A stretch of DNA of 64,000 nt. Origin: an uncultured virus (IMG/VR IMGVR_UViG_2617271287_000001). Lineage: Duplodnaviria > Heunggongvirae > Uroviricota > Caudoviricetes. Made by a program: the position numbers and the translations under genes. Position 1 is the stretch's first letter, and the number at the start of each line of letters is the position of its first letter. The stretch lies in the IMG/VR virus record IMGVR_UViG_2617271287_000001, positions 1-64,000 of that record. One strand, written 5' to 3'. The notes below the pieces were generated by a model. It was not told the origin of the DNA, made no database searches, and saw nothing but the letters and a program-made list of their open reading frames with translations. Below are positions 1-13,213 of this stretch, piece by piece.

Positions 1-1155
1 ATGGCCACTATTCGCGCTCGGCGCAACGCCGATGGAACGGTGATGTACACCGCGCAGATTCGTATCAAGCGCGGAGGCGCGCAAGTCTATCAGGAGAGCG
101 CAAGTTTCAGCCGGAAAAAGGCCGCTGAAGCATGGGCGCTCCGTCGGGAGGCTGAATTGGCCGAGCCCGGTGGCTTGGAGCGGGCGACGAAAAAGGGGGT
201 ACTGCTTCGGAACATCATCGCCCAGTACCTGGCCGACCGGGATAAGACTCGCCCGCTGGGTAAGACCAAGATCGCCACGCTGACCGCCATCGCCGCTTCC
301 CACCTGGGCGATACCATCGACCGGGATATCACCAGTCAGGTGCTCGTTGACTATGCGCTGTGGCGCATGGGGCCGGACGGGGGAGGGGTGAAGGCGCAGA
401 CAGTTGCCAATGACCTGGCACATCTTGGGTCGGTGTTAGGAGTGGCGGAGGCAGCCTGGGGGTATCAAGTCGACCCGGACGTTATGGCGAAAGCCCGCAG
501 AGTTCTCAAGAACCTGGGTTACAAGTTGCGCAGCAGGGAGCGTGATCGGCGCCCGACACTTGAAGAGTTGGATCGGTTGTTCCAGGCGTTCGAGCGCTCA
601 TGGCGATCGCGGCCGACCTCGATGTGCATGGCGAAGGTCGCTGCCTTCGCATTGTTCTCCAGCCGAAGGCAGGAGGAGATCATCCGTATCCGGTGGGCGG
701 ATCTGGACGAGGCCCGGGGCGCCGTCCTGGTCCGGGACATGAAGAACCCAGGCGACAAGTGGGGTAACGACGTGTGGTGTCAGCTACCCGAGGAGGCAAT
801 GGCGGTCATCAAGAGTATGCCGCGGGCCTTCGACGAGATCTTTCCATACACCACCGATGCGATTCAGGGGGCATGGAGTCGCGCGATCACTGCCGCAGGT
901 ATAGAGGATCTGACGTTTCACGATCTGCGCCACGAAGCGATCAGTCGGCTGTTTGAGCTGGAGTGGGACATTCCCAAGGTGGCTTCGGTCAGCGGGCACC
1001 GAGATTGGAACTCTCTTCGGCGATATACCCATCTGCGTGGGTCTGGTGATAAATATGCTGGCTGGGAATGGCTCCCGAAGGTCCTGGCGATGCCGGTGTC
1101 CTTCGGGGAATGGGTTTCCAAGAAGAAGTCAGGCCGCCGGTCGGGCTCGGTTTAG
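1..1155 (+). CDS. int: Tyrosine recombinase / phage integrase
   Basis: Catalytic motifs R (SSRRQEE), HDLRH, GHRDW..L.RY. Confidence 0.95.
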   Translation: MATIRARRNADGTVMYTAQIRIKRGGAQVYQESASFSRKKAAEAWALRREAELAEPGGLERATKKGVLLRNIIAQYLADRDKTRPLGKTKIATLTAIAASHLGDTIDRDITSQVLVDYALWRMGPDGGGVKAQTVANDLAHLGSVLGVAEAAWGYQVDPDVMAKARRVLKNLGYKLRSRERDRRPTLEELDRLFQAFERSWRSRPTSMCMAKVAAFALFSSRRQEEIIRIRWADLDEARGAVLVRDMKNPGDKWGNDVWCQLPEEAMAVIKSMPRAFDEIFPYTTDAIQGAWSRAITAAGIEDLTFHDLRHEAISRLFELEWDIPKVASVSGHRDWNSLRRYTHLRGSGDKYAGWEWLPKVLAMPVSFGEWVSKKKSGRRSGSV

Positions 1156-1404
1156 CCGTTCATGGTCTTTCAGGGCGACCTCGCGCTGTTTGTCCAGATA
1201 CGCCGCCAGGTCCGCCAAGTGAATGCCTCTGGCAGCCTTCTGGCTGGACTCGATCCGCGTGATAGGGATCTGGATCTGTCCGGCCAGGACCTTCCGCTGG
1301 AACTGCTCGACAGTCAGGTGACTGAAGTAGTCGGCGCATACTCTATTCAGCGGGATGATGGCGAGGCCGTTGTACTGGGCCATGAGAAGGAACAGGGTAT
1401 TCAT
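1129..1404 (-). CDS. Pyocin activator PrtN-family protein (excisionase-like position)
   Basis: MNTLFLLMAQY...IPITRIESSQKAARGIHLADLAAYLD matches the PrtN family pattern; convergent with int. Confidence 0.85.
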   Translation of the reverse strand: MNTLFLLMAQYNGLAIIPLNRVCADYFSHLTVEQFQRKVLAGQIQIPITRIESSQKAARGIHLADLAAYLDKQREVALKDHERLNRARPAA

Positions 1405-1523
1405 CAGTAGCACCCCGCTTGCCATGCCGCTAGCGTGTGGAGGATCGGGAATACCTCCACGGCGAGCACCGCGGTCAGGCCAAGGGCGGCGATGATGCCA
1501 AGGGCGGTCAGTGTTCTACGCAT
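1404..1523 (-). CDS. 39-aa hydrophobic peptide (not in ORF track)
   Basis: MRRTLTALGIIAALGLTAVLAVEVFPILHTLAAWQAGCY; stop overlaps the next ATG (TGATG). Confidence 0.6.
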   Translation of the reverse strand: MRRTLTALGIIAALGLTAVLAVEVFPILHTLAAWQAGCY

Positions 1524-1983
1524 CGCTTAGCTCTCCCTGACTCGCCGCTGCCCGGTCCTTGAGCGATTCGATGACGGTTTGCGGCATGTCCACCTCTGCC
1601 TGCTGGACGAGATCCTGGAGCACTTCCAGCGCGGCCTCGATGAGGCTCTCAGCCACGCCTTGGTCGCGCCACTTGGTTTCGATGTAGCGGCGCTTGCCGG
1701 CGATCTGCCGAGAGAAGTCAGCACGCCGGCGTTCGATGATCACGCCAGTGACCTGCTCCAGATAGTCGATGTATTCCAGCGTCAGCTCGTGCTCGTTGCC
1801 GGTGTCGGCGAAGACCCCTCGGATGTTTGGGGCCTCCACTGCGATGGCTAGCAGTAGCGTAGCTGTGCTGTCCTTACCGCCGGAAACACTGATGATGTTG
1901 TGTTGTTCGCCGAGTACCAGGTCAGCGCCAATCCGCGAGCATGGTATGGCTTGCGATGGAGTGGAGGCAGAGAATGCTGTCAT
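1516..1983 (-). pseudogene. Truncated PAPS-reductase-family (PP-loop) protein
   Basis: SVSGGKDS and FADTGNE motifs, but only 155 aa; C-terminal part of the family appears missing. Confidence 0.65.
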
Positions 1984-2054
1984 GCCGTCTCCCCCTGGAC
2001 CATTTGCCTTGGTGTCTGCATGCTTCGTTTATCGCTGATGGCAAGGGGATGGCC

Positions 2055-2714
2055 ATGTTTCAAGAGGAAGTCACAATCAAGTTGCGTCCTAGTCATCTTT
2101 TGGGCTGCGTACTGGTCTCTCCCTTTATGGTGCTGCTGGGGTGCTGGATATGGTCTTGGGGATGGAGTAGCGCCAATGCTCCGGCCTGGGTTCAGGCGGT
2201 TGGCAGTGTTGTCGCTATTTTTGTGAGTTGGATTTTCTTTGTGCTTGATAAGCGAATTCAGCGTCGGAAACAAACCGAAGATAACAAGCTGATGCTTAAG
2301 CAGACGGTTGGAGTTGCGAAGCATGCTGGAAAGCTGGGGAAAATGGTTATATCTTCCGTGAAGGAGAAAAGAGGGGGCCAACAGCAAGCGCTCTTTGGAA
2401 CTTCTGAGTACCTCAGCACCATGAGGTCGGTTAATTTTAACCAGTTGCCAACAGTGGATAGTGCACTGGCTTGGCTGGAGCTGCAGCATGCTCTTTCGGA
2501 CCTGTGTCAGATAGTGCAAGTTGATGAGCCAGAAAGTGTGGAGTTTCATCGCCTGGCTCCTTTGGCGGTGGTAATTGATCGCGCTATAGCGAGATTGGTA
2601 ATTGATGCTGCGGCATTTATTCCGGAGTTGGGCGATGAGGCCTCCATGCTTAAAGCATTGGGAACAAGTAGAAAAAAAATTGACGGGCCACCTCTGCCAA
2701 AGTCGCTGGATTAG
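2055..2714 (+). CDS. Accessory membrane protein (moron)
   Basis: Lower GC, opposite strand to the early operon, two N-terminal hydrophobic segments (AWVQAVGSVVAIF). Confidence 0.8.
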   Translation: MFQEEVTIKLRPSHLLGCVLVSPFMVLLGCWIWSWGWSSANAPAWVQAVGSVVAIFVSWIFFVLDKRIQRRKQTEDNKLMLKQTVGVAKHAGKLGKMVISSVKEKRGGQQQALFGTSEYLSTMRSVNFNQLPTVDSALAWLELQHALSDLCQIVQVDEPESVEFHRLAPLAVVIDRAIARLVIDAAAFIPELGDEASMLKALGTSRKKIDGPPLPKSLD

Positions 2715-3029
2715 TAAGTCGAGATTTTCCTGGGCAGTGGCTAAAGTTTCTGACTCCGGTATGTGCCTGTGCTTGTGTAAGCGGGCCGACACTAGAAAAT
2801 AGTCGTTTTTCATGCCGAGCCAGATCGCAGTCAGTTGGTGTTCTTCGACAGCCAGAAAAACGACGAAATAGCTGTGTTGCGCTGTGCTGTAATGGTGTGC
2901 GCAGTGGCTGCTGAAGCGACATAGCTCGGCGGAGGCGAAGAGATCGATGTTCGGAGACTCGCGAGGGCCGAGAGGGAGCTGGGCCTGGTAGATGGCCTGG
3001 GCGAGATCGTGGCGACGGAAAGCGGTCAT
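2715..3029 (-). pseudogene. Remnant of an HD-family phosphohydrolase (YfbR-like)
   Basis: LCRFSSHCAHHYSTAQHS...EHQL resembles RFxGH..YSVAQH; the following LHD motif is absent. Confidence 0.55.
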
Positions 3030-3505
3030 GCCCGTCCCCCTTCGGTTTTCTCCAGGCGCTGGAGGAGGTCGGTGTTCGCGATGCGCAGCGCGGCAATCTC
3101 TTGGTTCTGCTCGCGGATCTGCGCGCACAGCGTGCGGATCAGTGCGTTATCGGTGGGCTTCGGTGGGCGCTTTCCCCCCTCGACAAGCTGCGCGGGCGAG
3201 CGAGTCATTAAGCGAAGCGTGGCTATGTGCTTCGCGCCCCGGCGCAGCCTTTCGTGGGGTATGCGTGCCTTCGGCGTGTACTGAAGGTTGGGTTGGAATA
3301 TGCCTGCTGCTGCGCAGCAGTGGCTTTCTATAGCGCCACCCTCGGGCATCGGTTGGCGGCCTTGGGCGATGGCGATCAGTTGGATGCGACGTGCCAGGCC
3401 GCCGCCGCGCTTTTGCGCGGCCGGGGCTTGGGTGCTTTGGGTGGCGTGTGCCAGGGCGGCGCCCTGGTCTTGTGCCGCTACGCGGCTAGCCGGGATAGTA
3501 GTCAT
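3026..3505 (-). CDS. Phage hypothetical protein
   Basis: ORF coupled within the leftward operon. Confidence 0.6.
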   Translation of the reverse strand: MTTIPASRVAAQDQGAALAHATQSTQAPAAQKRGGGLARRIQLIAIAQGRQPMPEGGAIESHCCAAAGIFQPNLQYTPKARIPHERLRRGAKHIATLRLMTRSPAQLVEGGKRPPKPTDNALIRTLCAQIREQNQEIAALRIANTDLLQRLEKTEGGRA

Positions 3506-3514
3506 CGCGCTGCC

Positions 3515-3754
3515 TCACATGCACATCGGTGCAGTGTCGCCGGAGTAGTCGAGGTCGACTGACTCCCAGCCGCTCGGACGAAGGTGGTCATCGATCTCGC
3601 GGATCTGGTCGCTGATATCGGCAATCGTGATTTCCCCGCGTCGAGCATCGTCCTCGTCCCACTGTGGCTGGGCGCGGCGCAGGCGGGTCAGGCTGTCGAC
3701 GTGGTGGCTGCGGTGCTTCAGCAGGTCGTAGGTGGAGAGGCTGGAGTAGTTCAT
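3515..3754 (-). CDS. Phage hypothetical protein
   Basis: ORF with GGAGG RBS, coupled to the upstream gene. Confidence 0.7.
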   Translation of the reverse strand: MNYSSLSTYDLLKHRSHHVDSLTRLRRAQPQWDEDDARRGEITIADISDQIREIDDHLRPSGWESVDLDYSGDTAPMCM

Positions 3755-4377
3755 GCCGCCTCCTGCGCTTCAACTTCTGCGCTCTGGCTGGCCAGTTCCG
3801 TGATGGCGAGCCGCTGGAGGATCGCGGCGAGCTGCTGTTGGGCTTCGGCGTCTGCGTTGCGCTTGGTGGTGCCGGTCTTTTGGAACTGTCGAGCGTGGCC
3901 GCTGAGGAGGCGACTGGCGGTGCGGATGGCGTCCAGTTCTTCGGCGACCAAGTTCTGCTCGCGGAGGAGCTTCGCGGTCTCAGCCTGCCGATGATTGGTC
4001 GCGATGCGTGTCTCCAGCTCCGTCTCCAGGCGCTTCAGTTCCGCTTGTTGCTCTTCGTGGCGCTGCTGCCAATCCGCAAGTTTCTCGGTGGCCTCGGCTT
4101 CGACGTTTTGACGAAGTTCCTTCTCGTCGCTGATCTCTTCCTGCTGCTCATCGATGACCTGTTGCAGGCGCTGGGCATTGGTGCGCAGCTTGGCAAGGTC
4201 GGCATGCAGCGCCGTCAGTTCCTGGCTGTGCGAGGCGCGGCAGAGGTAAAGCGCCTCGTCGACCGCCTGCTGTTGGGCGTTCTTCCTGTCCTTGCGCCCA
4301 GCAAGATAGGCGGTGGCGATCAGGACCAGCAGCGCGGCGAGAGTGGTGGCCGCGAGAATGATGTGTTGGGTATGCAT
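3751..4377 (-). CDS. Membrane-anchored coiled-coil protein
   Basis: N-terminal TM segment followed by an E/Q/L-rich helix. Confidence 0.75.
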   Translation of the reverse strand: MHTQHIILAATTLAALLVLIATAYLAGRKDRKNAQQQAVDEALYLCRASHSQELTALHADLAKLRTNAQRLQQVIDEQQEEISDEKELRQNVEAEATEKLADWQQRHEEQQAELKRLETELETRIATNHRQAETAKLLREQNLVAEELDAIRTASRLLSGHARQFQKTGTTKRNADAEAQQQLAAILQRLAITELASQSAEVEAQEAA

Positions 4378-4427
4378 GGTGGTTTTCTCCATTGGTGGTG
4401 GGTGGCCGGTGGTGGCGGCCGGTGTGG

Positions 4428-4745
4428 TTACTCGTTACTGCCGAGTCGGGCATATGCCTCGTCGGCCTGCCAGGCTCGTGAGTCGATCCAGGCCGCAAGG
4501 TGGCGCACATCGACAAATGGCTGGGCGCGCTGACTCGGGTCGACGGTGGTGATGGGGAGGCGGATTCGGCGTTCCTTGATCGAACGGCTGAACGTCTCTT
4601 CGTTGAGGTTGTGGAAGTACCGAATGCGCAGGTGCTCCAGCGGGATCAGCACGTCGCCGAAGGTGCGGTAGAGGAGTTCCACCGTCTCCGGGCGTGGGGC
4701 CGGAGTCAGGCGAAGCTCGGGTTGGTTGTCGTGAGGAGTGCTCAT
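4428..4745 (-). CDS. Second PrtN-family protein
   Basis: LIPLE...RLPITTVDPSQRAQPFVDVRHLAAWID aligns by eye with 1129..1404. Confidence 0.75.
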   Translation of the reverse strand: MSTPHDNQPELRLTPAPRPETVELLYRTFGDVLIPLEHLRIRYFHNLNEETFSRSIKERRIRLPITTVDPSQRAQPFVDVRHLAAWIDSRAWQADEAYARLGSNE

Positions 4746-4972
4746 GCGGCGGCCTCGTTGAGCACGGCTACCGCGTCCTCGATGCCGCTGGCTGCTTCGT
4801 TGAGTTGGTCGACGATCTCTTCCATGCGCGCTCCGCGGTTGCTGGCTTGCAGGCTCTCGGGCATAGCGTCCAGGGCCTCCTCCTCCTCGCTAACCAAGGT
4901 TTCGATCTGCTCGCGGATCTCTTCGAGTTGAGCGGTGATTTGTTGCAGTTGGCGTCGGCGTGCGTTGTTCAT
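4742..4972 (-). CDS. Phage hypothetical protein
   Basis: Acidic helical 76-aa ORF with overlapping start/stop. Confidence 0.75.
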   Translation of the reverse strand: MNNARRRQLQQITAQLEEIREQIETLVSEEEEALDAMPESLQASNRGARMEEIVDQLNEAASGIEDAVAVLNEAAA

Positions 4973-5130
4973 TTGTTCCCCTTGGGGTGGTTCCAGGCGA
5001 TCTCTACGTGGGTTCGTACAAGTTCCCGTAGGTGTTCCGGCACCCGCTCCAGGGCCGCCCTGCGTTCCTCAATGGTTCGAAGGGCGACGATCTGGCGGGC
5101 GTATTCGCGGGGCCGGGGCTCGTCAGCCAA
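4969..5130 (-). CDS. 53-aa phage protein (TTG start, not in ORF track)
   Basis: MADEPRPREYARQIVALRTIEERRAALERVPEHLRELVRTHVEIAWNHPKGNK fills the gap between coupled genes. Confidence 0.6.
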   Translation of the reverse strand: MADEPRPREYARQIVALRTIEERRAALERVPEHLRELVRTHVEIAWNHPKGNK

Positions 5131-5416
5131 CCTCGCGGCGGTCCGGGACCGCCGGCGGGCAGACGCGGGGGATGCCGAGCTTGTCGGCCAGCCATGCCAC
5201 TCCGGCCGGGCGCACTTTCGTCGAGTGGCTGTACTGCATGCCGAGTTCGGGGTGGTGCCAGGGCGTTTCCTTTGCGCGCAGGTAGAGGCGGTCGCGGACT
5301 GGAGCGGCTGGAAGAGTGTTGCTGTCGAGCAGGCCGGCCGCCTTCATGCGCTTGATCAGCTCGGGACGCGTCAGCCCGAGGCGCTGCGCGGCCTGGTGCA
5401 GGGACAAGTCTTTCAT
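5123..5416 (-). CDS. Antirepressor KilAC/ANT-like DNA-binding protein
   Basis: HTH-like start (SLHQAAQRLGL) and STKVRPAGVAWL. Confidence 0.65.
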   Translation of the reverse strand: MKDLSLHQAAQRLGLTRPELIKRMKAAGLLDSNTLPAAPVRDRLYLRAKETPWHHPELGMQYSHSTKVRPAGVAWLADKLGIPRVCPPAVPDRREVG

Positions 5417-5425
5417 CGCGGCCCC

Positions 5426-5737
5426 CTACGCAGCCTGGTCGAAACGGCGGCGAGCCGGGGTCTCGTCCGCGGTGTCCAGGCGGCCATTCGCGATGGACTC
5501 GATGTAGTCGGCCACGGTGTTGGCGTTGGACTGGGAGTCGAGCGGGAGGCCCAGGCTGTTCAGCGTGGAGCCCATTCGAACGATGATGTGGACCTGTCCA
5601 GCGCCGCGCTCAATGTCGAGAGTGACGTGGACTGCCTGACGGGTTTCGGCGTCGTAGAGGGCGTGGTTGAAGCGGCCGTTGAGGCTGAGCTGAGCCTTGA
5701 GCCGCACAAAGGATGGTTGGCGGAGTGCGTAGGTCAT
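5426..5737 (-). CDS. Phage hypothetical protein
   Basis: ORF with GGAGG RBS. Confidence 0.7.
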   Translation of the reverse strand: MTYALRQPSFVRLKAQLSLNGRFNHALYDAETRQAVHVTLDIERGAGQVHIIVRMGSTLNSLGLPLDSQSNANTVADYIESIANGRLDTADETPARRRFDQAA

Positions 5738-5925
5738 GCCGCGTCACCTCCAAACGGGGAGGTGGTGGTTACCGAATAACGGCGGCCCGGGGTACGGCTG
5801 GCTACAAGCTGGGCTTTGCCGTTGAAGATGACGACAAGGCAGCCAGTTTCGGCCTGGAGGCGTTGGACCTGTTGCGGGGAGGAGGTACAGGCCGGGTGGA
5901 CGTGTACCGTGGCGGAACGTTGCAT
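5734..5925 (-). CDS. First gene of the leftward early operon, 63 aa
   Basis: GAGGT RBS, directly after the pL-like promoter. Confidence 0.7.
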   Translation of the reverse strand: MQRSATVHVHPACTSSPQQVQRLQAETGCLVVIFNGKAQLVASRTPGRRYSVTTTSPFGGDAA

Positions 5926-5961
5926 GGTGTTACCTCGTCTCTGTGGTGGAGAGTCGAGGTA

Positions 5962-6003
5962 ATTAAACGCAACGTTTAAAGCTGGGTCAATACGTTTTGT
6001 TTA
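5962..6003 (-). promoter_or_regulatory. pL-like promoter with two operators (TAAAC-N5-GTTTA)
   Basis: TTGACC (5985-5990) -17- TTTAAT (5962-5967) on minus; operators at 5964-5978 and 5989-6003. Confidence 0.75.
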
Positions 6004-6009
6004 TTTTGT

Positions 6010-6750
6010 TTATTGGTCGAAGGCAAGGCCTTTCTTTTTTCGGAGCGTCGACCACCAAAATACCCAGCCAAGGATTCGGATTTGTTGGGTCTCGATCTGC
6101 TCGGCTGAGTATTCTTCGTCTGGGTGCTCTGTTGTGTTGAAGCTCCGCAGGCGCATACCGCCCGCTGGCAGGCGATATAGGTATTTCACTCGTAGCATTC
6201 CGTCATGTTCAAGGGCGTAGATTTCGCCGTCCAGAATGCGGGTTGCGCTCTTGTCCACTCCGATGGTGGCGCCATTCATAATCAATGGCTCCATGCTGTT
6301 CCCGCTGACCGTGGCGCAGAAAGCCGCCGAAGGGGAGACTCCGGCATTTCGAAGCGTAGCGTAGGAGAATCGCAGCTTTCTCCCCTTAATCTCACGCACC
6401 GCTGTTCGGCCGGCTCCGGCGGATAGCTCAACTTCCTTGTACAGCGGCACTTCAACCTCGTCCGGTTCTAGGGGCGTTCTGTCATCCCAGGGATCGAGGG
6501 GAGAGAGCAGGGAGCTTTCACCGCCTGTGGCTAGGGAGTTCGATGGAGATTCGCTATCTGTTCCATCGCTCAGCCAGCGAGGATTGACGGCTAGTGCGTC
6601 AGCAATAGCGAAAACGCGGGCCTTTGGAATCCCGCGCTTGAACCAATTGTTGACGTGTTGGGGCTCAACGCCTAGCGCTGCTGCGAACTCGCTATAGGCG
6701 ATTCCTCTCTCATCGAGGAGGCCGCGCAATCTGGTGCCGGATGTGCTCAT
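6010..6750 (-). CDS. CI-like repressor, HTH + S24 peptidase, PrtR-like C-terminal domain
   Basis: SAGAG cleavage site, GNSMEP, RVK; likely start MSTSGTRL. Confidence 0.93.
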   Translation of the reverse strand: MSTSGTRLRGLLDERGIAYSEFAAALGVEPQHVNNWFKRGIPKARVFAIADALAVNPRWLSDGTDSESPSNSLATGGESSLLSPLDPWDDRTPLEPDEVEVPLYKEVELSAGAGRTAVREIKGRKLRFSYATLRNAGVSPSAAFCATVSGNSMEPLIMNGATIGVDKSATRILDGEIYALEHDGMLRVKYLYRLPAGGMRLRSFNTTEHPDEEYSAEQIETQQIRILGWVFWWSTLRKKKGLAFDQ

Positions 6751-6832
6751 AAACTCAGAGTTTACAGGGGTAGACATTGCGTTTAAATAAACGTAATGTG
6801 TATTACCGAATGCGAAGAAAACGGTGCGTTTA
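6750..6832. promoter_or_regulatory. oR region: four operators and a pR-like promoter
   Basis: TAAACtcagaGTTTA 6750, TAGACattgcGTTTA 6771, TAAACgtaatGTGTA 6788, AAAACggtgcGTTTA 6818; TAGACA-17-TAATGT. Confidence 0.8.
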
Positions 6833-7068
6833 TGGATCAATCGGCATTGGAAAAGGCGATTAACGCTGCTGGAGGTGGACGGGCGCTCGCGCAAGCAATG
6901 GGGCTTAGCCCGATGGCTGTTTCCCAATGGAAAAAGCGCGGGGTGCCTGCTGAGCGTGTGCCTGCCGTGGTGCGAGCATGCAAAGGTGCTGTTGCTGCAC
7001 ATGAATTACGGCCGGACCTGCCAGACCTATTTCCACTTCCAGATAAGCACTCTAGGAAAGCAGCTTAG
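6832..7068 (+). CDS. cro: Cro/YdaS-like HTH protein
   Basis: GGRALAQAMGLSPMAVSQW...HELRPDL; divergent from the repressor. Confidence 0.9.
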   Translation: MDQSALEKAINAAGGGRALAQAMGLSPMAVSQWKKRGVPAERVPAVVRACKGAVAAHELRPDLPDLFPLPDKHSRKAA

Positions 7069-7300
7069 TCCCTCGCCACCACCGAGGGAGGGGAGCCAGG
7101 CCGGCTGGAGCAGCACGCTAAGTACCACCACAGCCGGCCGAGCTTCCCAGACCCGAAGCACGGATGCCTCGGGGTTGCCAGCCTCTCCACCACAGAGCTG
7201 CTGGCTGTAACGGTCGGGTGATCAGGAATACCGATCACCCGGCCATCGTGGCAGATGGCGTTTCCACCACAGAGCGGCCATCTGCCTTGTGACCACCATG
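7069..7300 (+). ncRNA. Candidate multi-hairpin RNA (four CCACCAC hairpins, two GGA-loop hairpins)
   Basis: Six consecutive stem-loops read by eye between cro and the CII-like gene. Confidence 0.6.
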
Positions 7301-7373
7301 CAATGTGACCACGGCGCCTACTCTAACAAGGTTGGTGGCGTCGTGGCACTGGCAGTAAACAGGAATAATTGCC

Positions 7374-7928
7374 ATGTCCCGACCCTCGTTCGCGGATCAG
7401 TTCGACCGCATGGGCCGCGAGGTGCTTCCCTTGGGCGAAGCGCTCAACCTCGTCGCCCGCAATCAACGCATGTGCCACGGTGGCATCACTGGCTTCGCTC
7501 ACTCCACCGGCCGCAGCGTCTCCACCACTTCCCACAAGTTCGACCCCAGCCACACCAGCCACATCCTCAACATCTACGACGTGCTCGACTTCCTGCGGTA
7601 CGTGTCGGCCGAGGGGCGGGCGGTCGTGCTCGACGCGCTGCATGCCGAGCTGGGCGACAGCCTGTGGTTCTTCGTTTCGCCGCTTCAGTTCGAGGATGTG
7701 CCGGCCAGCCTGATTGCCGGTGCCGGCGAGATCCTGCACACGTCGGCCAATGCGGCAACCACCATCGCGCGCCATATCGAGGATGGTCGCATCGATGCGG
7801 CCGAGCTGGCCGAAACCCAAAAACTGGCGATGAGCATCATCCGCGCGGCGGTTGGCCTCTACGAGCGGGCTCGCTACGTCCACCAGACCACCAAGGGCGC
7901 CGAACGCGGGGAGGTGGCCAATGGCTGA
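7374..7928 (+). CDS. Phage regulatory protein, CII-like
   Basis: Position after cro; C-terminal DGRIDAAE motif. Confidence 0.7.
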   Translation: MSRPSFADQFDRMGREVLPLGEALNLVARNQRMCHGGITGFAHSTGRSVSTTSHKFDPSHTSHILNIYDVLDFLRYVSAEGRAVVLDALHAELGDSLWFFVSPLQFEDVPASLIAGAGEILHTSANAATTIARHIEDGRIDAAELAETQKLAMSIIRAAVGLYERARYVHQTTKGAERGEVANG

Positions 7929-8130
7929 TATCGCGGATCACGCCAATGACCTGGTGCTGGAGCGCATGGAGGCGGCGTTGGCTGCCCGAGCGCTGGTAGT
8001 GGCTGGCGAATCGGCTCATGAGTGCGAGTGCTGCGGCGAGCCAATCCCGCCGCGCCGTCGCGAAGCTGTGCCGGGGTGCCAAACCTGCATTGAATGCCAG
8101 TCCTTCAACGAGCGGAGGGGGCGCCGGTGA
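7921..8130 (+). CDS. TraR/DksA C4 zinc-finger protein (PtrB-like)
   Basis: MADIADHAND...CECCGEPIPPRRREAVPGCQTCIECQ. Confidence 0.9.
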   Translation: MADIADHANDLVLERMEAALAARALVVAGESAHECECCGEPIPPRRREAVPGCQTCIECQSFNERRGRR

Positions 8131-10340
8131 GTAACGAAGCCTTGGACGAAGTGCTGAATCAGCTTCGGGATCATGGTATCGAGCCCTTCACCAAGCGGAG
8201 CCCGGGCTGGGTGTTCGGCAAGCTGGTGCGCTGCAAGGTCGAGGGCGACCGGAGCGGGGAGGCTACTGGCTGGTACGTACTGCACGAATACACCACTGCC
8301 AGCGGCAAGACCCTCTATTTCGGGCGCTTCGGCAACTGGCGGCAGGATCTCAACGAGAAATTCAAGCTCAAGGGTGTTCGCCTGACTGCCGAGGAGCGCG
8401 AGCTTATGCACGCCCGCCAGGAAGAGGCCAAGCGCAAGGCCGCGGCAAAGGCCGCCTACGCCGCGCAGCGTGCTGCGCAGGGCGCCGCGCGGCTGTGGGA
8501 ACGGCTATCGGAGAAGGGCAAGGCGCCGTATCTCGACCGCAAGCAAATCGTCGGTATCGGCGGTCGCTACGGTTACGGCGGGCGTTTCATGGTGCCCATG
8601 CGAACGCTCAAGGGGCTGGTGGGGCTGCAAATCATCTACCCTGAAAAGCAGCCCGATACCGGCCGGGACAAGGCGTATTGGCCCTACGGCATGCAGAAGG
8701 AAGGCGCGTTCTGCCTGATCGGTCCGCGCCCCGAACCCGGCGAGCCGGTGTTGATCGCTGAGGGCTACGCAACCGGCGTCAGCCTGCATATGGCGACGGG
8801 CTGCGCGGTGGCTATTGCCTTCGATGCCGGCAACCTGCTGCCGGTCGGCAAGGCGATGCAGACCGAGTACCCGTCGCGGCCGCTGATCTTCTGCGGCGAT
8901 GACGACTGGAAGACCACCCGCCAGGACGGATCGCCTTGGAATCCGGGCGCTCAGGCTGCGGAGAACGCCGCCACGATCCTGGGCGGCCAGTTCGTACTCC
9001 CTCGCTTCGGCAGCGAGCGGGATGAGGGCTGGACTGACTTCAACGACCTGCACTGTGCCGAGGGGCTGGAGGTTGTCCGCGCCCAGGTCATGGCGGTGGT
9101 CCGGCCGCCGGCGGAAGGGGGCTGGCGTGACTGCTTGCTGCGGATCAAGGGCGGCGGGTTGGCGGCGCACATGGTGAACATCAGTCTCATCTTGCAGAAC
9201 GATGAACGGTGGCAAGGCGTGCTCGGCTATGACGAGTTCAGCGCCAAGACCATGAAGCTGCGGACGCCACCCTATGGCGGTGGTACGGGGGAGTGGACAG
9301 ATCTGGACGACATGCTGGCGTGCGAGTGGCTGGCACAGCAGTACGGTCTGTTGACGAAGGTGCCGCCGGTGCTCGAAGCGGTGTCTGTGGTGGCCAGCAA
9401 GAACAGTTTTCACCCGGTGCGGGCGTACCTTGAGGGCCTGGAGTGGGACGGTACGCCGCGGATCGAGCATTGGCTGAACAGGGCCCTGGGCGTGGAGGAG
9501 ACCCCGTACTCGATGAAGGCCGGCAAGCGCTGGCTGATCGGCGCTGTTGCGCGTGTTATGCGCCCAGGCTGCAAGATGGATACGGTGCTGATCCTCGAAG
9601 GGTTGCAGGGTGAGGGCAAGTCGACTGCCATGTCGGTGCTGGGCGGCGAGTGGTTCATGGATACCCCGTTCGTGCTTGGTGACACAGAAACATTTCAGAT
9701 GTTACGCGGCAAATGGATCAGCGAACTGGGCGAGTTGGATGCCTTCAACAAGGCCGACAGCACCAAGGCGAAGCAGTTCTTCTCGGCATCGGTTGATACC
9801 TTCCGCGAGAAATATGGCCGCAGATCCCGCGATGTGCCGCGACAGTGTGTTTTCGTAGGTACTACAAACCAGGAGGAGTACCTGAAAGACACCACCGGTA
9901 ACCGTCGATACTGGCCGGTCCTCTGCACGAAGGTGGATCTGGACCTGCTGCGCGAGATCCGGGACCAGCTATGGGCAGAAGCGCTGTTCTGCTACCGCGC
10001 CGGAGATCAGTGGTGGGTCTCGCGTGAAGAGCGCGCGCTGTTCGAGGAGGAGCAGGACAAGCGCTACACCGTCGACGCCTGGGAGCACAAGTTGATCGGT
10101 TGGCTGGAGGGGTACGTCGGCGAGACCGTCACCAGTGCTGACCTGCTGGGGGACGCGCTCAACCTCGACTTCGGGCATTGGGGCAAACCGGAGCAGATGC
10201 GAGTTGGCCATATCATGCACCGGCTGGGCTGGCGGCGCAGACGCCTGCCCGCATCCGGTAAGTCACCGGTGCGGCCGTGGGGCTATGAGCGGCCGCCGTC
10301 GTGGAAGGGGCGGCCAACGCAGAAGGAGGCCGCATTTTGA
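8127..10340 (+). CDS. TOPRIM primase fused to VapE/VirE-type helicase
   Basis: IAEGYATG, CGDDD, TDFNDL; Walker A GLQGEGKST; GTTN..YL.D.TGNRR. Confidence 0.9.
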   Translation: MSNEALDEVLNQLRDHGIEPFTKRSPGWVFGKLVRCKVEGDRSGEATGWYVLHEYTTASGKTLYFGRFGNWRQDLNEKFKLKGVRLTAEERELMHARQEEAKRKAAAKAAYAAQRAAQGAARLWERLSEKGKAPYLDRKQIVGIGGRYGYGGRFMVPMRTLKGLVGLQIIYPEKQPDTGRDKAYWPYGMQKEGAFCLIGPRPEPGEPVLIAEGYATGVSLHMATGCAVAIAFDAGNLLPVGKAMQTEYPSRPLIFCGDDDWKTTRQDGSPWNPGAQAAENAATILGGQFVLPRFGSERDEGWTDFNDLHCAEGLEVVRAQVMAVVRPPAEGGWRDCLLRIKGGGLAAHMVNISLILQNDERWQGVLGYDEFSAKTMKLRTPPYGGGTGEWTDLDDMLACEWLAQQYGLLTKVPPVLEAVSVVASKNSFHPVRAYLEGLEWDGTPRIEHWLNRALGVEETPYSMKAGKRWLIGAVARVMRPGCKMDTVLILEGLQGEGKSTAMSVLGGEWFMDTPFVLGDTETFQMLRGKWISELGELDAFNKADSTKAKQFFSASVDTFREKYGRRSRDVPRQCVFVGTTNQEEYLKDTTGNRRYWPVLCTKVDLDLLREIRDQLWAEALFCYRAGDQWWVSREERALFEEEQDKRYTVDAWEHKLIGWLEGYVGETVTSADLLGDALNLDFGHWGKPEQMRVGHIMHRLGWRRRRLPASGKSPVRPWGYERPPSWKGRPTQKEAAF

Positions 10341-10708
10341 TCAAGCCAATTGACGAGATGCTACGGACCTGGGCCGCCGAGCTGCACCCACCGAACGGCG
10401 TAGGTTCAGCCGGCAACGCTAGCGGCGGGAGCAATGTGATTGCTATGCTGATGGCGACCAGGGGAAACCTGACTCGCTCCACAGCGGGGGCTCGCTGTCC
10501 TCTGGATCGCACGGCGGACATTGAGCTGATCGTGAACAAGCACCTTCCGCCGCCCATCGAGCGGGTGGTGCGGTTGCATTACACGGACTACGACATGTCG
10601 GACCCGATGAAATGGGAAGCGTGCGGGTGCGGTAGAACCCAGTATTACCAGCGCCTGCACCTGGCCCATGCGGCCATTGCTGAAATCCTGCTGCGGCGGG
10701 CGGCCTGA
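10337..10708 (+). CDS. Putative late regulator (PA0613/Q-like)
   Basis: TTG start after AGGAGG; C-terminal HTH-like CGRTQYYQRLHLAH; lies before the late promoter. Confidence 0.65.
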   Translation: MIKPIDEMLRTWAAELHPPNGVGSAGNASGGSNVIAMLMATRGNLTRSTAGARCPLDRTADIELIVNKHLPPPIERVVRLHYTDYDMSDPMKWEACGCGRTQYYQRLHLAHAAIAEILLRRAA

Positions 10709-10720
10709 CTTGGCCGTGCA

Positions 10721-10992
10721 CTGTCCCACCGTCCTACTCTGTCCCGCTTCGTTTTTCGAGGCGGGACAGCGCAAAGCCCCGTCGCCGCTGGGGCTGTCCC
10801 ACTGTCCCACCTTTCACACACCCGCCCGCACATAGGCGCGTATCGCGCGCGCACGCGCGTAGCGTGCGCTCTTATTATTCTTCTCTTATATGCGTAGAAA
10901 GTAGTAGGACAAGTGGGACAGTAGGACAACGCCATATAAAACAATGGGTTATCTGTCCCACCTGCTGACCCACCTACTGACCAGTAGGACAG
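10721..10992. repeat. Direct and inverted TGTCC(C/T)AC iterons around AT-rich patches; putative origin
   Basis: About 12 full or near copies in both orientations. Confidence 0.75.
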
Positions 10993-11175
10993 CGCCGGAG
11001 GCGCTTGATAACCGTAGATGGATATACGCCGGACGAGTCCGGGACGAGTTTGGGGCGACTCCGGGATAAGTTCGGGGTGGCAATAAAACTGGGTTGCTGC
11101 CACCGAACTGAAGGGGTAAAAAGTAGGCACTCTCGTAGAGGTGCGCCAGTGAGGCACACGCTCCACATCATCCGA

Positions 11176-11200
11176 ACCCGGCCATCGCGCCGGGTTTTTT
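11176..11200 (+). terminator. Intrinsic terminator in the late leader (tR'-like)
   Basis: ACCCGGC-catcgc-GCCGGGT followed by a T-run; candidate promoter TTGCTG-17-TAAAAA at about 11094-11122. Confidence 0.7.
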
Positions 11201-11282
11201 ATTGGCTCGATTTCGGCGCCTCTGGCCTCCCTGGCGGGGCGTCGGGTCCAGGGACGGGCCGCCTACTCAGACCGAGGTGAAC

Positions 11283-11633
11283 ATGGCGACAGAGAACGAC
11301 GTTCAGCAGACGCTGAGCGATATCCCGACCTGGCTGTTCGTGCTGGTGTCGATGGCAGGCCTGTCTGGGGAGTTGTGGCGCGCCGAGGCGGCAGGGCTGA
11401 CGGTCAGCGATCTGCTGAAACGTGTCCTGCTGCGCTCGGGGGCGTCGGTGGTGTTCGGCCTGGCCTCGGTGTTGCTCGCCACGGCGAGCGGTGCGGGGCT
11501 GCCGGTTGCCGCCGCGCTCGGTAGCGTGGTCGCGTGCCTCGGCGCCGACGTGGCATCTGGTTTTTACACACGTTGGCTTGAGCGGAAAGCGGGCGGTTCT
11601 GAGGTGCCGCCTCGTCGGGCTGACTCGGAGTGA
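11283..11633 (+). CDS. Holin (pyocin PA0614-like)
   Basis: Several TM segments; QQTL.D.P.W...GLSGELWRA. Confidence 0.85.
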   Translation: MATENDVQQTLSDIPTWLFVLVSMAGLSGELWRAEAAGLTVSDLLKRVLLRSGASVVFGLASVLLATASGAGLPVAAALGSVVACLGADVASGFYTRWLERKAGGSEVPPRRADSE

Positions 11634-12367
11634 GAGGGGCTATCACTGCGCGGGACTTGGACGACGCCGTTCGGTCCTTGCAGCAGCTCGGTGGCGACTT
11701 GCCTGCTGCTGTGTTGGCCGACGCCTTGAACCACACGGCGAACCAGGCGAATCAGGCGCTGGTCGGGGAGATCGACCAGGTCTTCGACCGGCCGACACCG
11801 TTCACCCGCAACGCCATCCGCATCCTGCATGCCACTTCGCGCCGCCTTGAGGCGGCCTTGTGGGTGAAGGACGAAAAGGACCATGCCTCGAAGGGGCAGG
11901 CGCCGGAGGACTGGGTGGCTCCCCAAGTCTTCGGGGGGCCGAGGGTGGACAAGGCGTCGGAGCGGAACCTCCGAGCCCGGGGCATTCTGCCTGCGGGCAT
12001 GTTCGTCGTTCCAGCGGAGGGCGCCCGGCTGGACCAGTACGGCAACATGAGCCGCGGCCAGATGATCCAGATCCTCTCCGGCCTGGGCGCCCTGGAATAC
12101 CGAGCGGGGTTCAAAGGAAACGCCACTCAGTCGGCGCGCTCCCTGGCGAAGGGACACCAACTGGCGTACTTCGTGATGCGCCGTGGCCGCCGGCCGATTG
12201 GCATCGCCGAACGCCGTGGACGGACGTTGACCATGGTCCTCGCCTTCGTCCGCCAGCCTCAGTACCGCGTGCGCTTCCAGTTTCACGAAGTCGTTCGGCG
12301 TATTGCCGAGGACGACGCGCGCATCGAGGCGAACATCGAGCGGACCCTGGCGAAAGCGTTGCGCTGA
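11630..12367 (+). CDS. Phage late protein, possibly tail completion
   Basis: ALNHTA...FDRPTPFT; basic; coupled to the holin. Confidence 0.7.
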   Translation: MRGAITARDLDDAVRSLQQLGGDLPAAVLADALNHTANQANQALVGEIDQVFDRPTPFTRNAIRILHATSRRLEAALWVKDEKDHASKGQAPEDWVAPQVFGGPRVDKASERNLRARGILPAGMFVVPAEGARLDQYGNMSRGQMIQILSGLGALEYRAGFKGNATQSARSLAKGHQLAYFVMRRGRRPIGIAERRGRTLTMVLAFVRQPQYRVRFQFHEVVRRIAEDDARIEANIERTLAKALR

Positions 12368-12622
12368 ACCGTTGGCAGGTGGCTTGGCCGGGCGGAGCGG
12401 GGTTAGTTCAACCCGAGCCGGCGGTGGCCGCCTGCAGACGGGGTGTCGCGAAAAGCGGGGCAGTGACGTGCTGCTCAAAAAGCACCGGGGGCCCCTGAAG
12501 CGCCGCCCCCGACAAGGGTGATTCGAACCCCGTTCTCGCGCTAGTGGCTGGGCCGGGAAGTTAGTTAACAGGGTTAACCGGGTTAACCCCCCTCGGTTCA
12601 TCGTGGTTAACAGGTACCGCAC

Positions 12623-13213
12623 ATGGAGTTCATGACCAAGGCAGCGTTCGCGGACCGCCAAGGCTGGTCGCGCGCCTACGTGTCGAAGCTGGTCCGGCAA
12701 GGACGCCTCGTCCTCACTGCCGACGGAAAGGTCGACGTCCAGGCGAGCGACGAACTGCTGGCCGCCAGCGCAGACCCGAGCAAGGCTGCCGTGGCCGAGC
12801 GGCACCGGCAGGAGCGGGTGGAGAAGGGCGTGTACGCCCACATAGGCGCAGGTGCAGCCCCGAGCCCGGCCTTACCGGCACCTGGGCAGACCGCACCGCT
12901 GCCCGACTACCAGAAAGCCCGCGCACGGCGAGAGTACGCCCTGGCTCTGCTGGCAGAAGACGAACACCGCAAGAGCCGTGGCGAGACGGTCGAGCGCGCG
13001 CGTGTCGACTCCGCCGCCTTCACCGCTGCGCGCGCTCTGCGCGATCTGCTGATGGGCGTGCCGCCGAAGATCGCCGGCGACCTGGTGACGCTGACCGACC
13101 CCTGGGAGATCGAACGCCGCCTGACCCAGGCGCTGCGCCGTGCCTTGGAAGATGCCGACCGCCTCCTGCAGCTCGATGCCGAGATCGAACAAGGGGGCAA
13201 GGAGCCGAACTGA
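12623..13213 (+). CDS. Terminase small subunit
   Basis: N-terminal wHTH, coiled coil, precedes terL. Confidence 0.85.
   Translation: MEFMTKAAFADRQGWSRAYVSKLVRQGRLVLTADGKVDVQASDELLAASADPSKAAVAERHRQERVEKGVYAHIGAGAAPSPALPAPGQTAPLPDYQKARARREYALALLAEDEHRKSRGETVERARVDSAAFTAARALRDLLMGVPPKIAGDLVTLTDPWEIERRLTQALRRALEDADRLLQLDAEIEQGGKEPN

Follow-up and report, generated by a model that had tools for sequence, protein, structure and literature searches.

A covarying hairpin array between cro and cII of Pseudomonas prophages and a candidate multi-seed antisense RNA on its opposite strand

We analysed a 64,000-nucleotide (nt) stretch of DNA from an uncultured caudovirus (IMG/VR record IMGVR_UViG_2617271287_000001, positions 1 to 64,000; hereafter the window), and in it the spacer that separates the cro-like gene of a Pseudomonas aeruginosa prophage from its cII gene. 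Our data show that this spacer carries an array of CCACCAC hairpins that is conserved, with covarying stems, across related prophages, and that the tops of these hairpins are same-sense copies of start regions in the early-left operon, transcribed from the pL promoter. Our best reading, which we hold tentatively and at slightly less than an even chance, is that the spacer encodes a leftward antisense RNA with several seeds, which would work like the c4 RNA of phages P1 and P7 without being homologous to it. The module is a conserved RNA element between cro and cII of Pseudomonas prophages, and with the same reserve we propose that both of its strands are used. The working strand is probably the minus strand, which a first-pass annotation of the window did not consider.

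Hairpins of the cro-cII spacer and their conservation

The first-pass annotation reported four CCACCAC hairpins on the plus strand between 7069 and 7300, and its coordinates and stem sequences proved exact (HP1 to HP4, Table 1). Four copies stand against about 0.05 expected in 232 nt from the rate in the whole window, and the 28 copies found on both strands of the window compare with 10.95 ± 3.49 in shuffled sequences, none of 100 shuffles reaching 28. Folding of 7060-7380 is also stronger than in shuffles on either strand (z = -6.9 for the plus strand and z = -5.8 for the minus strand). The annotation's description of an invariant 7-nt loop on differing stems holds for three of the four copies and fails for HP2, which has a 23-nt loop: its loop closes with CCACCA, and the final C of the motif (7125-7131) is already paired in the 3′ arm of the stem. 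The invariant part is moreover wider than the loop, with TCCACCACAGAG common to HP3, HP4 and the copy at 5943, and the core kept by relatives is CACCAC. HP3 consists of an outer stem, a 2-nt bulge and an inner CUCU/AGAG stem that closes the CCACCAC loop; HP4 has a 10-bp outer stem and an inner UUU/AGA stem, including a U-G pair, below the same loop.

We gathered relatives with cII as the anchor, from 36 IMG/VR loci, three species genomes (cII identity 54-57%), three metagenome contigs and 30 Pseudomonadaceae loci, the last taken from the 31 cII-positive genomes in a sample of 401. All 35 IMG/VR loci with upstream DNA hold three or four CCACCAC copies. Each of the 30 Pseudomonadaceae loci has at least two sense-strand CACCAC words within ~330 nt upstream of cII, and the complementary GTGGTG occurs once in total in these same regions. 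Loci of the cII family were found in 35 IMG/VR contigs and in three isolated phages; LPPA36, vB_Pae_U5 and Haddon are related isolates. Five cII loci of the same Pfam family (CP76) from other Gammaproteobacteria contain zero or one CACCAC copy, so the array is a feature of this cII subfamily.

Grouping the 63 distinct leaders so that clusters are less than 88% identical to one another gave 26 clusters, which we call lineages. Their elements follow a kept order: the cro stop codon; HP1, with loop (C)CACCAC(A); HP2, with loop GGGAGCACACCA...; a CCAAGGCA-CGGA-UGCCUUGG hairpin; HP3; a strong hairpin of variable sequence with GGA in its loop (A-CGGA-U or GCGGAGC in relatives); HP4; the words GUGACCACC...GUGACCACGG; and a hairpin presenting the cII Shine-Dalgarno (SD) sequence. 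In an alignment of 20 lineages (A3), 24 of 39 pairs show compensatory change, among them six of nine in HP3 (helix 2) and seven of eight in the variable hairpin (helix 3). Paired cells make up 87.6% of this alignment and 75.9% of shuffled ones (0/500 reach the observed value), and 34-49% when partners are slid, a control against which the alignment is favoured by a structure partly taken from the window's own fold. The covariation across related prophages that the first-pass annotation had proposed looking for is thus present, and its view of the array as an RNA-level element is borne out by the presence of the array in all 30 Pseudomonadaceae loci and by the covarying stems.

That annotation had also suspected an undescribed family. 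An Rfam covariance scan of 3000-12000 on both strands, at E values up to 10, returned nothing in 7069-7373 and only MEG8_1 and sR32 elsewhere; no description of the element was found in the literature searched, which covered the motif, Pseudomonas phage antitermination, prophage sRNAs and the three related isolated phages and did not extend to subscription journals and supplements. When viral contigs were scanned for pairs of CCACCACAG words separated by 40-70 nt, 119 stretches were returned, and among the loci read (L039 onward) 22 locus-strands had at least two CCACCAC copies with a flanking stem of at least 4 bp. Eleven of these belong to the same Pseudomonas family, including one new variant (L101); the other 11 are dense or regularly spaced arrays, which we set aside by eye as coding or tandem repeats. 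In one P. aeruginosa lineage (L007:2130-2503), the segment comprising the CGGA hairpin, HP3, the strong hairpin and HP4 is tandemly duplicated, giving a leader with six CCACCAC-type hairpins.

Copies of early-left start regions in the leader

The first-pass annotation counted two leftward copies of the motif and six in all, every one intergenic. This is imprecise, since the minus strand alone holds six between 3701 and 5949. Two of them (5943-5949 and 4409-4415) are 7-nt hairpin loops in intergenic RNA; the copy at 4395-4401 is intergenic and unpaired, and those at 5762, 4343 and 3701 lie within open reading frames (ORFs), none as a hairpin loop. The first hairpin, L1, opens the pL transcript at its 5′ end; the first pL gene has its SD (GAGG) within the 3′ arm of this hairpin. 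L1 recurs in the same promoter context and with a covarying outer stem at 19 of 20 distant loci, and the twentieth has a variant loop, UUACCAC. The second, L3, is followed by an SD and a start codon flanked by further CACCAC words; on our reading of the 20 loci, at least 13 have a counterpart whose stem covaries.

We found that the leader shares exact words of at least 11 nt with the pL region at 45 sense-strand sites in 19 of 20 loci, and at five sites on the antisense control. The shared words are the tops of L1 and L3, GGAGCACACCACAUG and ACCACCAUGCA. HP3 and HP4 have 12-16 nt in common with L1 (15 nt and 12 nt, respectively, in the window), and HP1-type hairpins have 11-17 nt in common with L3; in the window the HP1 top, CGCCACCACCG, is the top of the L3 hairpin, with an 11-nt identity to 4406-4417. 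The HP2 loop, GGGAGCACACCA in relatives, equals GGAGCACACCA(CAUG), which in the gene following L3 makes up the SD, the spacer and the AUG. Downstream of HP4, 7292-7302 (ACCACCATGCA, ACCACCAUGCA) matches the start-codon region of the gene starting at 4377, and the word CACCATGCAA / CACCAUGCAA within 7289-7314 matches that of the gene starting at 5925. Separately, 3719-3744, inside a 79-amino-acid ORF, resembles the whole HP3 hairpin, over 26 nt with five mismatches and exactly over 14 nt.

The copies also change together within genomes. In lineage L197, UUACCAC replaces CACCAC in HP3 and L1 alike while its remaining loops stay CACCAC, and in L210 a leader hairpin and L3 have 17 nt in common. 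Leaders matched their own genomes better than permuted partners (L1, 13.0 vs 11.9, p = 0.0017; L3, 10.7 vs 9.1, p = 0.0027), where the p values overstate significance to the extent that some loci are related. Only exact words discriminate the pL sense strand from controls: RNAduplex, applied to the antisense RNA and the pL region, returned unrealistic long-range duplexes, and an ungapped mismatch-tolerant score gave no separation in this GC-rich DNA (58 for pL sense, 56-80 for controls).

These results support the earlier proposal that the array is functionally tied to the leftward copies. Because the leader and the pL mRNAs are identical in sense, they cannot pair with each other, and a third party is needed, either a protein or an RNA that contains GUGGUGG. 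The first-pass annotation had suggested a sponge that titrates a factor bound to the leftward sites. A sponge is still conceivable, but what it would titrate is more probably RNA than protein. The hairpin tops match 11-17 nt of the pL starts, SD and AUG included.

Minus-strand signals and competing explanations

L1, L3 and the SD/AUG regions have exact complements of 10-17 nt in the minus strand of the leader. That strand also bears an extended -10-like element beside the cII start (Table 1). On the minus strand, 22 of 26 lineages show the pattern TGnTAnnnT at one constant spacing from the cII start; on the plus strand none of the 26 does, and the invariant positions of the minus-strand element are exactly the promoter-critical ones. 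A strong intrinsic minus-strand terminator, made of a GC-rich stem and T5-6, lies exactly between the cro stop and the first hairpin in 12 of the 26 lineages (L158, L159, L160, L162, L163, L166, L169, L173, L175, L176, L179 and L186); plus-strand terminator-like hits were found in three of 26 leaders. In L159, the promoter-like element and the terminator delimit a predicted RNA of 278 nt (z = -4.6). At 22 loci, the strand opposite L1 had neither a TGnTAnnnT element nor a terminator (0/22), which leaves the leader antisense as the only candidate trans-acting RNA with signals of its own.

We rank the leftward multi-seed antisense RNA first because the minus strand is complementary to the targets and has its own promoter and terminator signals. 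In the mechanism that we propose, leftward transcription from the extended -10 promoter beside the cII start would produce an antisense RNA, ~275 nt long in relatives and ending there at the terminator beside cro. Its hairpin loops would present GUGGUGG-centred seeds exactly complementary to L1, which covers the SD of the first pL gene, to L3 and to the SD/AUG regions of further pL genes, and loop-loop pairing would block translation or destabilise the pL mRNAs. The same RNA, being complementary to the cII leader, would act on cII too. The pL genes would then be silenced during the choice between lysis and lysogeny by a multi-target antisense repressor resembling P1/P7 c4. The sequences show the hairpins, their covariation, the same-sense copies in pL, the minus-strand promoter-like element and the terminators; synthesis of the leftward RNA, its pairing in trans and repression by such pairing are inferred.

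Several observations weigh against this reading. In the window's own lineage, the leftward RNA has no evident terminator and may continue toward cro and cI. Among the four pairs nearest the loop in 61 CCACCAC hairpins (26 lineages), 34 G-U but only 2 A-C combinations occur, which means that selection maintains folding of these hairpins in the sense (pR) transcript; helices 1-3 of the 20-lineage alignment point the same way (~26 G-U vs 13 A-C, a tally from pair-type lists). Whole-leader tests showed no strand preference, a test on 1x1 mismatches gave 58 G-U vs 72 A-C, and the energies of the hairpin domains are about equal on the two strands. The first mismatches beside the shared words are tolerable as wobbles in an antisense-target duplex in 16 cases and not in 43, so antisense pairing would be limited to the exact 10-17-nt cores. 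One CACCAC core is present in all seeds, which pairing alone does not account for, and the within-genome co-change could arise through copying between repeats. The minus-strand promoter could be a counterpart of lambda pRE or 186 pE. Three assembled contigs from RNA runs span or nearly span the stretch, and such contigs cannot show strand or ends; a raw-read RNA run placed five reads on a 33-nt piece only, so the prophage was not in that sample. The rightward version of the hairpins, the four of the first-pass annotation, is the cII 5′ leader, which folds too and includes RsmA-type GGA hairpins, and this sense leader is a functional structured RNA in its own right.

The strand bias of G-U pairs, 34 vs 2, is what would be expected if the sense hairpins were operators of a sequence-specific RNA-binding protein, either a host protein or a phage protein such as the first pL product. 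Such a protein would control translation or stability at L1, L3 and the pL starts, and the four to six copies in the cII leader would serve the same control or act as a protein decoy. This explanation accommodates the common CACCAC core at every site and the invariant loops on varied stems, a layout like that of RsmZ/CsrB-type decoys. In addition, L1 is always accompanied by the gene of a conserved small protein, whose SD it overlaps. We consider this explanation a serious rival, though less likely than the antisense RNA. No RNA-binding protein was found, the small pL protein having no Pfam match, no known PHROG function and a predicted local distance difference test (pLDDT) score of 54. The shared words, moreover, are 11-17 nt long, site-specific and inclusive of SD and AUG, which exceeds the need of one protein site, and in L197 only HP3 and L1 changed jointly while the other loops kept CACCAC.

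The small protein itself is conserved among homologues at 18 loci (alignment A4), which are 53-74 amino acids long and consist of an N-terminal beta-alpha-beta unit, a short basic linker and a PFDPNDGG motif. All end in Ala-Ala, which we take to resemble a ClpXP-type degradation tag. It belongs to no Pfam family and to a PHROG (13491) of unknown function, all matches to it in the ESM Atlas were hypothetical proteins scoring below 0.9, and AlphaFold modelled it poorly (pLDDT 54.4).

A second alternative starts from the leader itself, which also contains an RsmA-type motif. The sequence CACGGATG (7159-7166; CACGGAUG), in the loop of the conserved CGGA hairpin, exactly matches the RsmA/RsmF consensus CAnGGAyG, as given in the preprint 10.1101/315341. 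An exact CAnGGAyG hairpin is present in 19 of 26 lineages, the leader of most lineages has only one full consensus, and further GGA motifs occur in the loop of the next hairpin (7224-7232) and in the cII SD, presented in a loop as ACAGGA (7361-7366). This pattern suggests host control of cII translation by RsmA, through which the Gac/Rsm state would feed in. The spacer might then be an ordinary long 5′ leader of cII, with an establishment promoter of the pRE/pE type, a fold that resists Rho and RNases, RsmA control through the GGA hairpins and the SD hairpin, and a likeness to pL that has no trans function. The exact consensus in a hairpin loop, the ACAGGA presentation of the SD and the structural bias toward the sense strand all agree with this account, and lambda pRE and 186 pE occupy an equivalent place. 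It would leave unexplained the strand-specific sharing of words with the pL starts (45 vs 5), the conserved L1 and L3 hairpins, the lineage-specific co-change and the leftward terminator before cro in 12 of 26 lineages, and we regard it as distinctly improbable.

The first-pass annotation had also offered a nut- or put-like antitermination system. In such a system the hairpins would be boxB-like elements on the pL and pR transcripts. Lambda nutL and nutR, and HK022 putL and putR, lie just after pL and just after cro, and the hairpins described here have parallel positions, with identical tops on both transcripts. On the other side, the boxA words GCTCTT, CGCTCTT[AT] and TGCTCTTTAACA are absent from 5880-6000 on the minus strand and 7040-7376 on the plus strand. 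No N-like protein is evident: the first pL product (19 aligned sequences) begins M..ATLHV.P.C and has only the short basic linker, with no N-terminal arginine-rich motif. A consensus scan found no strong intrinsic terminator on the plus strand from the leader to 10849, the only hit there being a weak 5-pair one inside cII (7651-7664), and none in the pL operon on the minus strand; Rho-dependent terminators may be present. L1 masks an SD and begins only a few nt from where the transcript is predicted to start, another copy stands mid-operon, four to six copies share one leader, and the shared words reach into SD and AUG. HK022 put RNA, which acts in cis on RNA polymerase, is ~70 nt long and has two stem-loops, while L1 has just one, with a 7-nt loop, and the spacer matched no Rfam family in the scan described above. 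We judge an antitermination role poorly supported and highly improbable.

Finally, the repeats lie near replication genes, and taken together the stems are of almost the same quality on either strand, as might be the case for a DNA-level element such as origin iterons or binding sites for CII or the primase-helicase. We find such an element scarcely credible because the repeats keep a strict orientation relative to transcription in both operons and because the stems tolerate G-U pairs on the sense strand; the stems also covary, and a better origin candidate is located at 10710-11080.

The leftward antisense RNA and the sense leader could also be parts of one two-strand RNA switch. The leftward RNA would shut off the pL operon and the cII leader; under strong pR transcription, the rightward leader, with its decoy copies of the targets, would titrate the antisense RNA; and RsmA-type hairpins would admit the host Gac/Rsm input. 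Promoter strengths and host state would determine how much of each transcript is present, and this balance would settle the choice of lysis or lysogeny throughout this Pseudomonadaceae prophage family. As a complete scheme, we judge this rather improbable.

Prophage setting, known systems and biological meaning

Over 6000-8100, the window is 99.1% identical to phage LPPA36 and 94.5% identical to vB_Pae_U5, and it represents a lambdoid prophage of P. aeruginosa. The gene order is cI, cro, the 305-nt spacer (7069-7373), a 186-type cII, a DksA/TraR-like zinc finger gene and a Toprim/VapE primase-helicase gene. The LPPA36 and U5 records annotate the repressor as prtR or a CI-like repressor and carry no annotation in the cro-cII spacer. 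A sigma-70 consensus scan of 1000-13000 on both strands returned no promoters and missed pL and pR as well, which makes it uninformative.

Table 1 Coordinates of the spacer elements, early-left features and neighbouring genes in the window.
Feature	Position	Strand	Description
HP1	7069..7089	+	7-bp stem TCCCTCG (7069-7075)/CGAGGGA (7083-7089), loop CCACCAC (7076-7082)
HP2	7090..7148	+	Stem GGCCGGCTG (7099-7107)/CAGCCGGCC (7131-7139), 23-nt loop; from fold
CGGA hairpin	7152..7173	+	CCCGAAGCA-CGGA-TGCCTCGGG; conserved; covariation helix 1
HP3	7177..7205	+	GCCAGCCTCT (7177-7186)-CCACCAC (7187-7193)-AGAGCTGCTGGC (7194-7205); from fold; covariation helix 2
Strong hairpin of variable sequence	7212..7244	+	GGA in loop (AGGAAUACC in the window); from fold; covariation helix 3
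HP4	7250..7286	+	GGCAGATGGC (7250-7259) GTTT-CCACCAC (7264-7270)-AGAGCG-GCCATCTGCC (7277-7286); covariation helix 4
Words shared with pL start-codon regions	7289..7314	+	GTGACCACC-ATG-CAATGTGACCACGG
cII SD hairpin	7350..7376	+	SD (ACAGGAAU) in loop, AUG at 3′ foot; from fold
Extended -10-like element	7320..7328	-	TGTTAGAGT; predicted leftward start near 7313
Proposed antisense RNA	7069..7313	-	GUGGUGG-containing seeds; proposed, with 3′ end undefined in this phage
cI-type repressor gene	6010..6777	-	Helix-turn-helix and S24 peptidase, PrtR-like; Pfam Peptidase_S24 (2.4e-24), HTH_3
cro-like gene	6796..7068	+	Start codon uncertain, stop TAG 7066-7068; Pfam YdaS_toxin (2.3e-17), P22_Cro (5.5e-7)
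cII gene	7374..7928	+	Coliphage-186 type; Pfam Phage_CP76, phrog_101
pL-like promoter	5962..5990	-	TTGACC (5990-5985), 17 nt, TTTAAT (5967-5962); read by eye; same layout in relatives
L1	5933..5959	-	CCUCGaCUCU-CCACCAC-AGAGaCGAGG; 5′ end of pL transcript
First pL gene	5734..5925	-	Conserved 63-amino-acid protein, phrog_13491, C-terminus -AA
L3	4404..4420	-	GGCCG-CCACCAC-CGGCC; between PrtN/excisionase-like gene and next gene
Start region of gene after L3	4373..4401	-	CCACCAC (4401-4395), GGAG, ACCACCAUGCA, AUG 4377-4375
Codons 4-12 of 79-amino-acid ORF (3754-3515)	3719..3744	-	CCAGCCUCUCCACC...; 14 nt common with 5′ half of HP3

Several other features of the region were noted. Within the 3′ end of cI (6019-6042, plus strand) there is a hairpin followed by six T residues that resembles a terminator and would halt rightward, antisense transcription leaving the early-left region; a stricter scan did not find it in relatives. 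Downstream of the primase-helicase gene, 10710-11080 is rich in iterons, with CTGTCCCAC and its complement occurring at least six times in both orientations and AGTAGGACA three times; it also has three repeats with an 11-nt period (11031-11074) and an AT-rich segment (10870-10900). This region is likely a replication origin or a late-control region. Just before it, a 135-amino-acid ORF (10301-10708; phrog_4300, function unassigned in PHROG) is followed by ~570 nt of non-coding DNA, a strong plus-strand terminator at 11174-11197 (GAACCCGGCC...GGGTTT TTTATT) and a holin gene (11274-11633; Pfam Phage_holin_3_5). Since this order matches lambda Q - pR′ - tR′ - S, the ORF may, by analogy, encode a late-gene regulator.

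Among known systems, c4 is the closest in working to the proposed antisense RNA. The P4 CI RNA and the N15 CA RNA are relatives of c4, and in c4 and P4 CI the regulator is processed from the precursor transcript of its own target. The RNA proposed here would instead be encoded opposite the pR transcript between cro and cII, behind a promoter-like element of its own and ~1.1 kb from pL, beyond cI and cro, with no common precursor. It would be ~250-280 nt long, with four to six seeds built on one CACCAC-complement core, whereas c4 is 77 nt long and has two seeds; one of its targets, L1, would be a 5′-terminal hairpin loop. The likeness lies in an immunity-region RNA whose seeds are complementary to ribosome-binding regions: the review PMC12197685 describes P1/P7 c4 as such an RNA, with loop seeds that pair around ribosome-binding sites, including that of an antirepressor-type operon. 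The spacer is no member of the C4 family: it has no match to Rfam C4 (RF01695) at E values up to 10, the proposed RNA would be three to four times the length of c4, and it differs in genomic placement, promoter and seeds.

The same review lists lambda OOP, which lowers cII, and P22 sar, which lowers ant, as short leftward or opposing cis-antisense transcripts (PMC12197685). They share with the proposed RNA the role of an antisense RNA against a lysis-lysogeny regulator in the immunity region, but OOP and sar act on the overlapping gene only, whereas action in trans on several pL genes is proposed here as well, and the proposed RNA would overlap the 5′ leader of cII rather than its 3′ end. Decoy RNAs of the RsmY, RsmZ and RsmV type resemble the sense array in that differing stems display one constant loop motif, and the leader adds an exact CAnGGAyG hairpin; here, however, the dominant motif is CCACCAC and not GGA, and the array belongs to the leader of an mRNA.

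The position of the module is central to the lysis-lysogeny switch of a prophage family that is common in P. aeruginosa. The principle proposed for it is known from c4; the element itself is without description in the literature searched and in Rfam. If the antisense reading is true, it would account for a 300-nt stretch that is blank in current phage annotations, and it would provide a compact example of an antisense RNA that acts in trans through multiple, redundant seeds. In these prophages, an RNA layer would then couple the two early operons, in a role like that of P1 c4 but otherwise built, and possibly joined to host control by RsmA.

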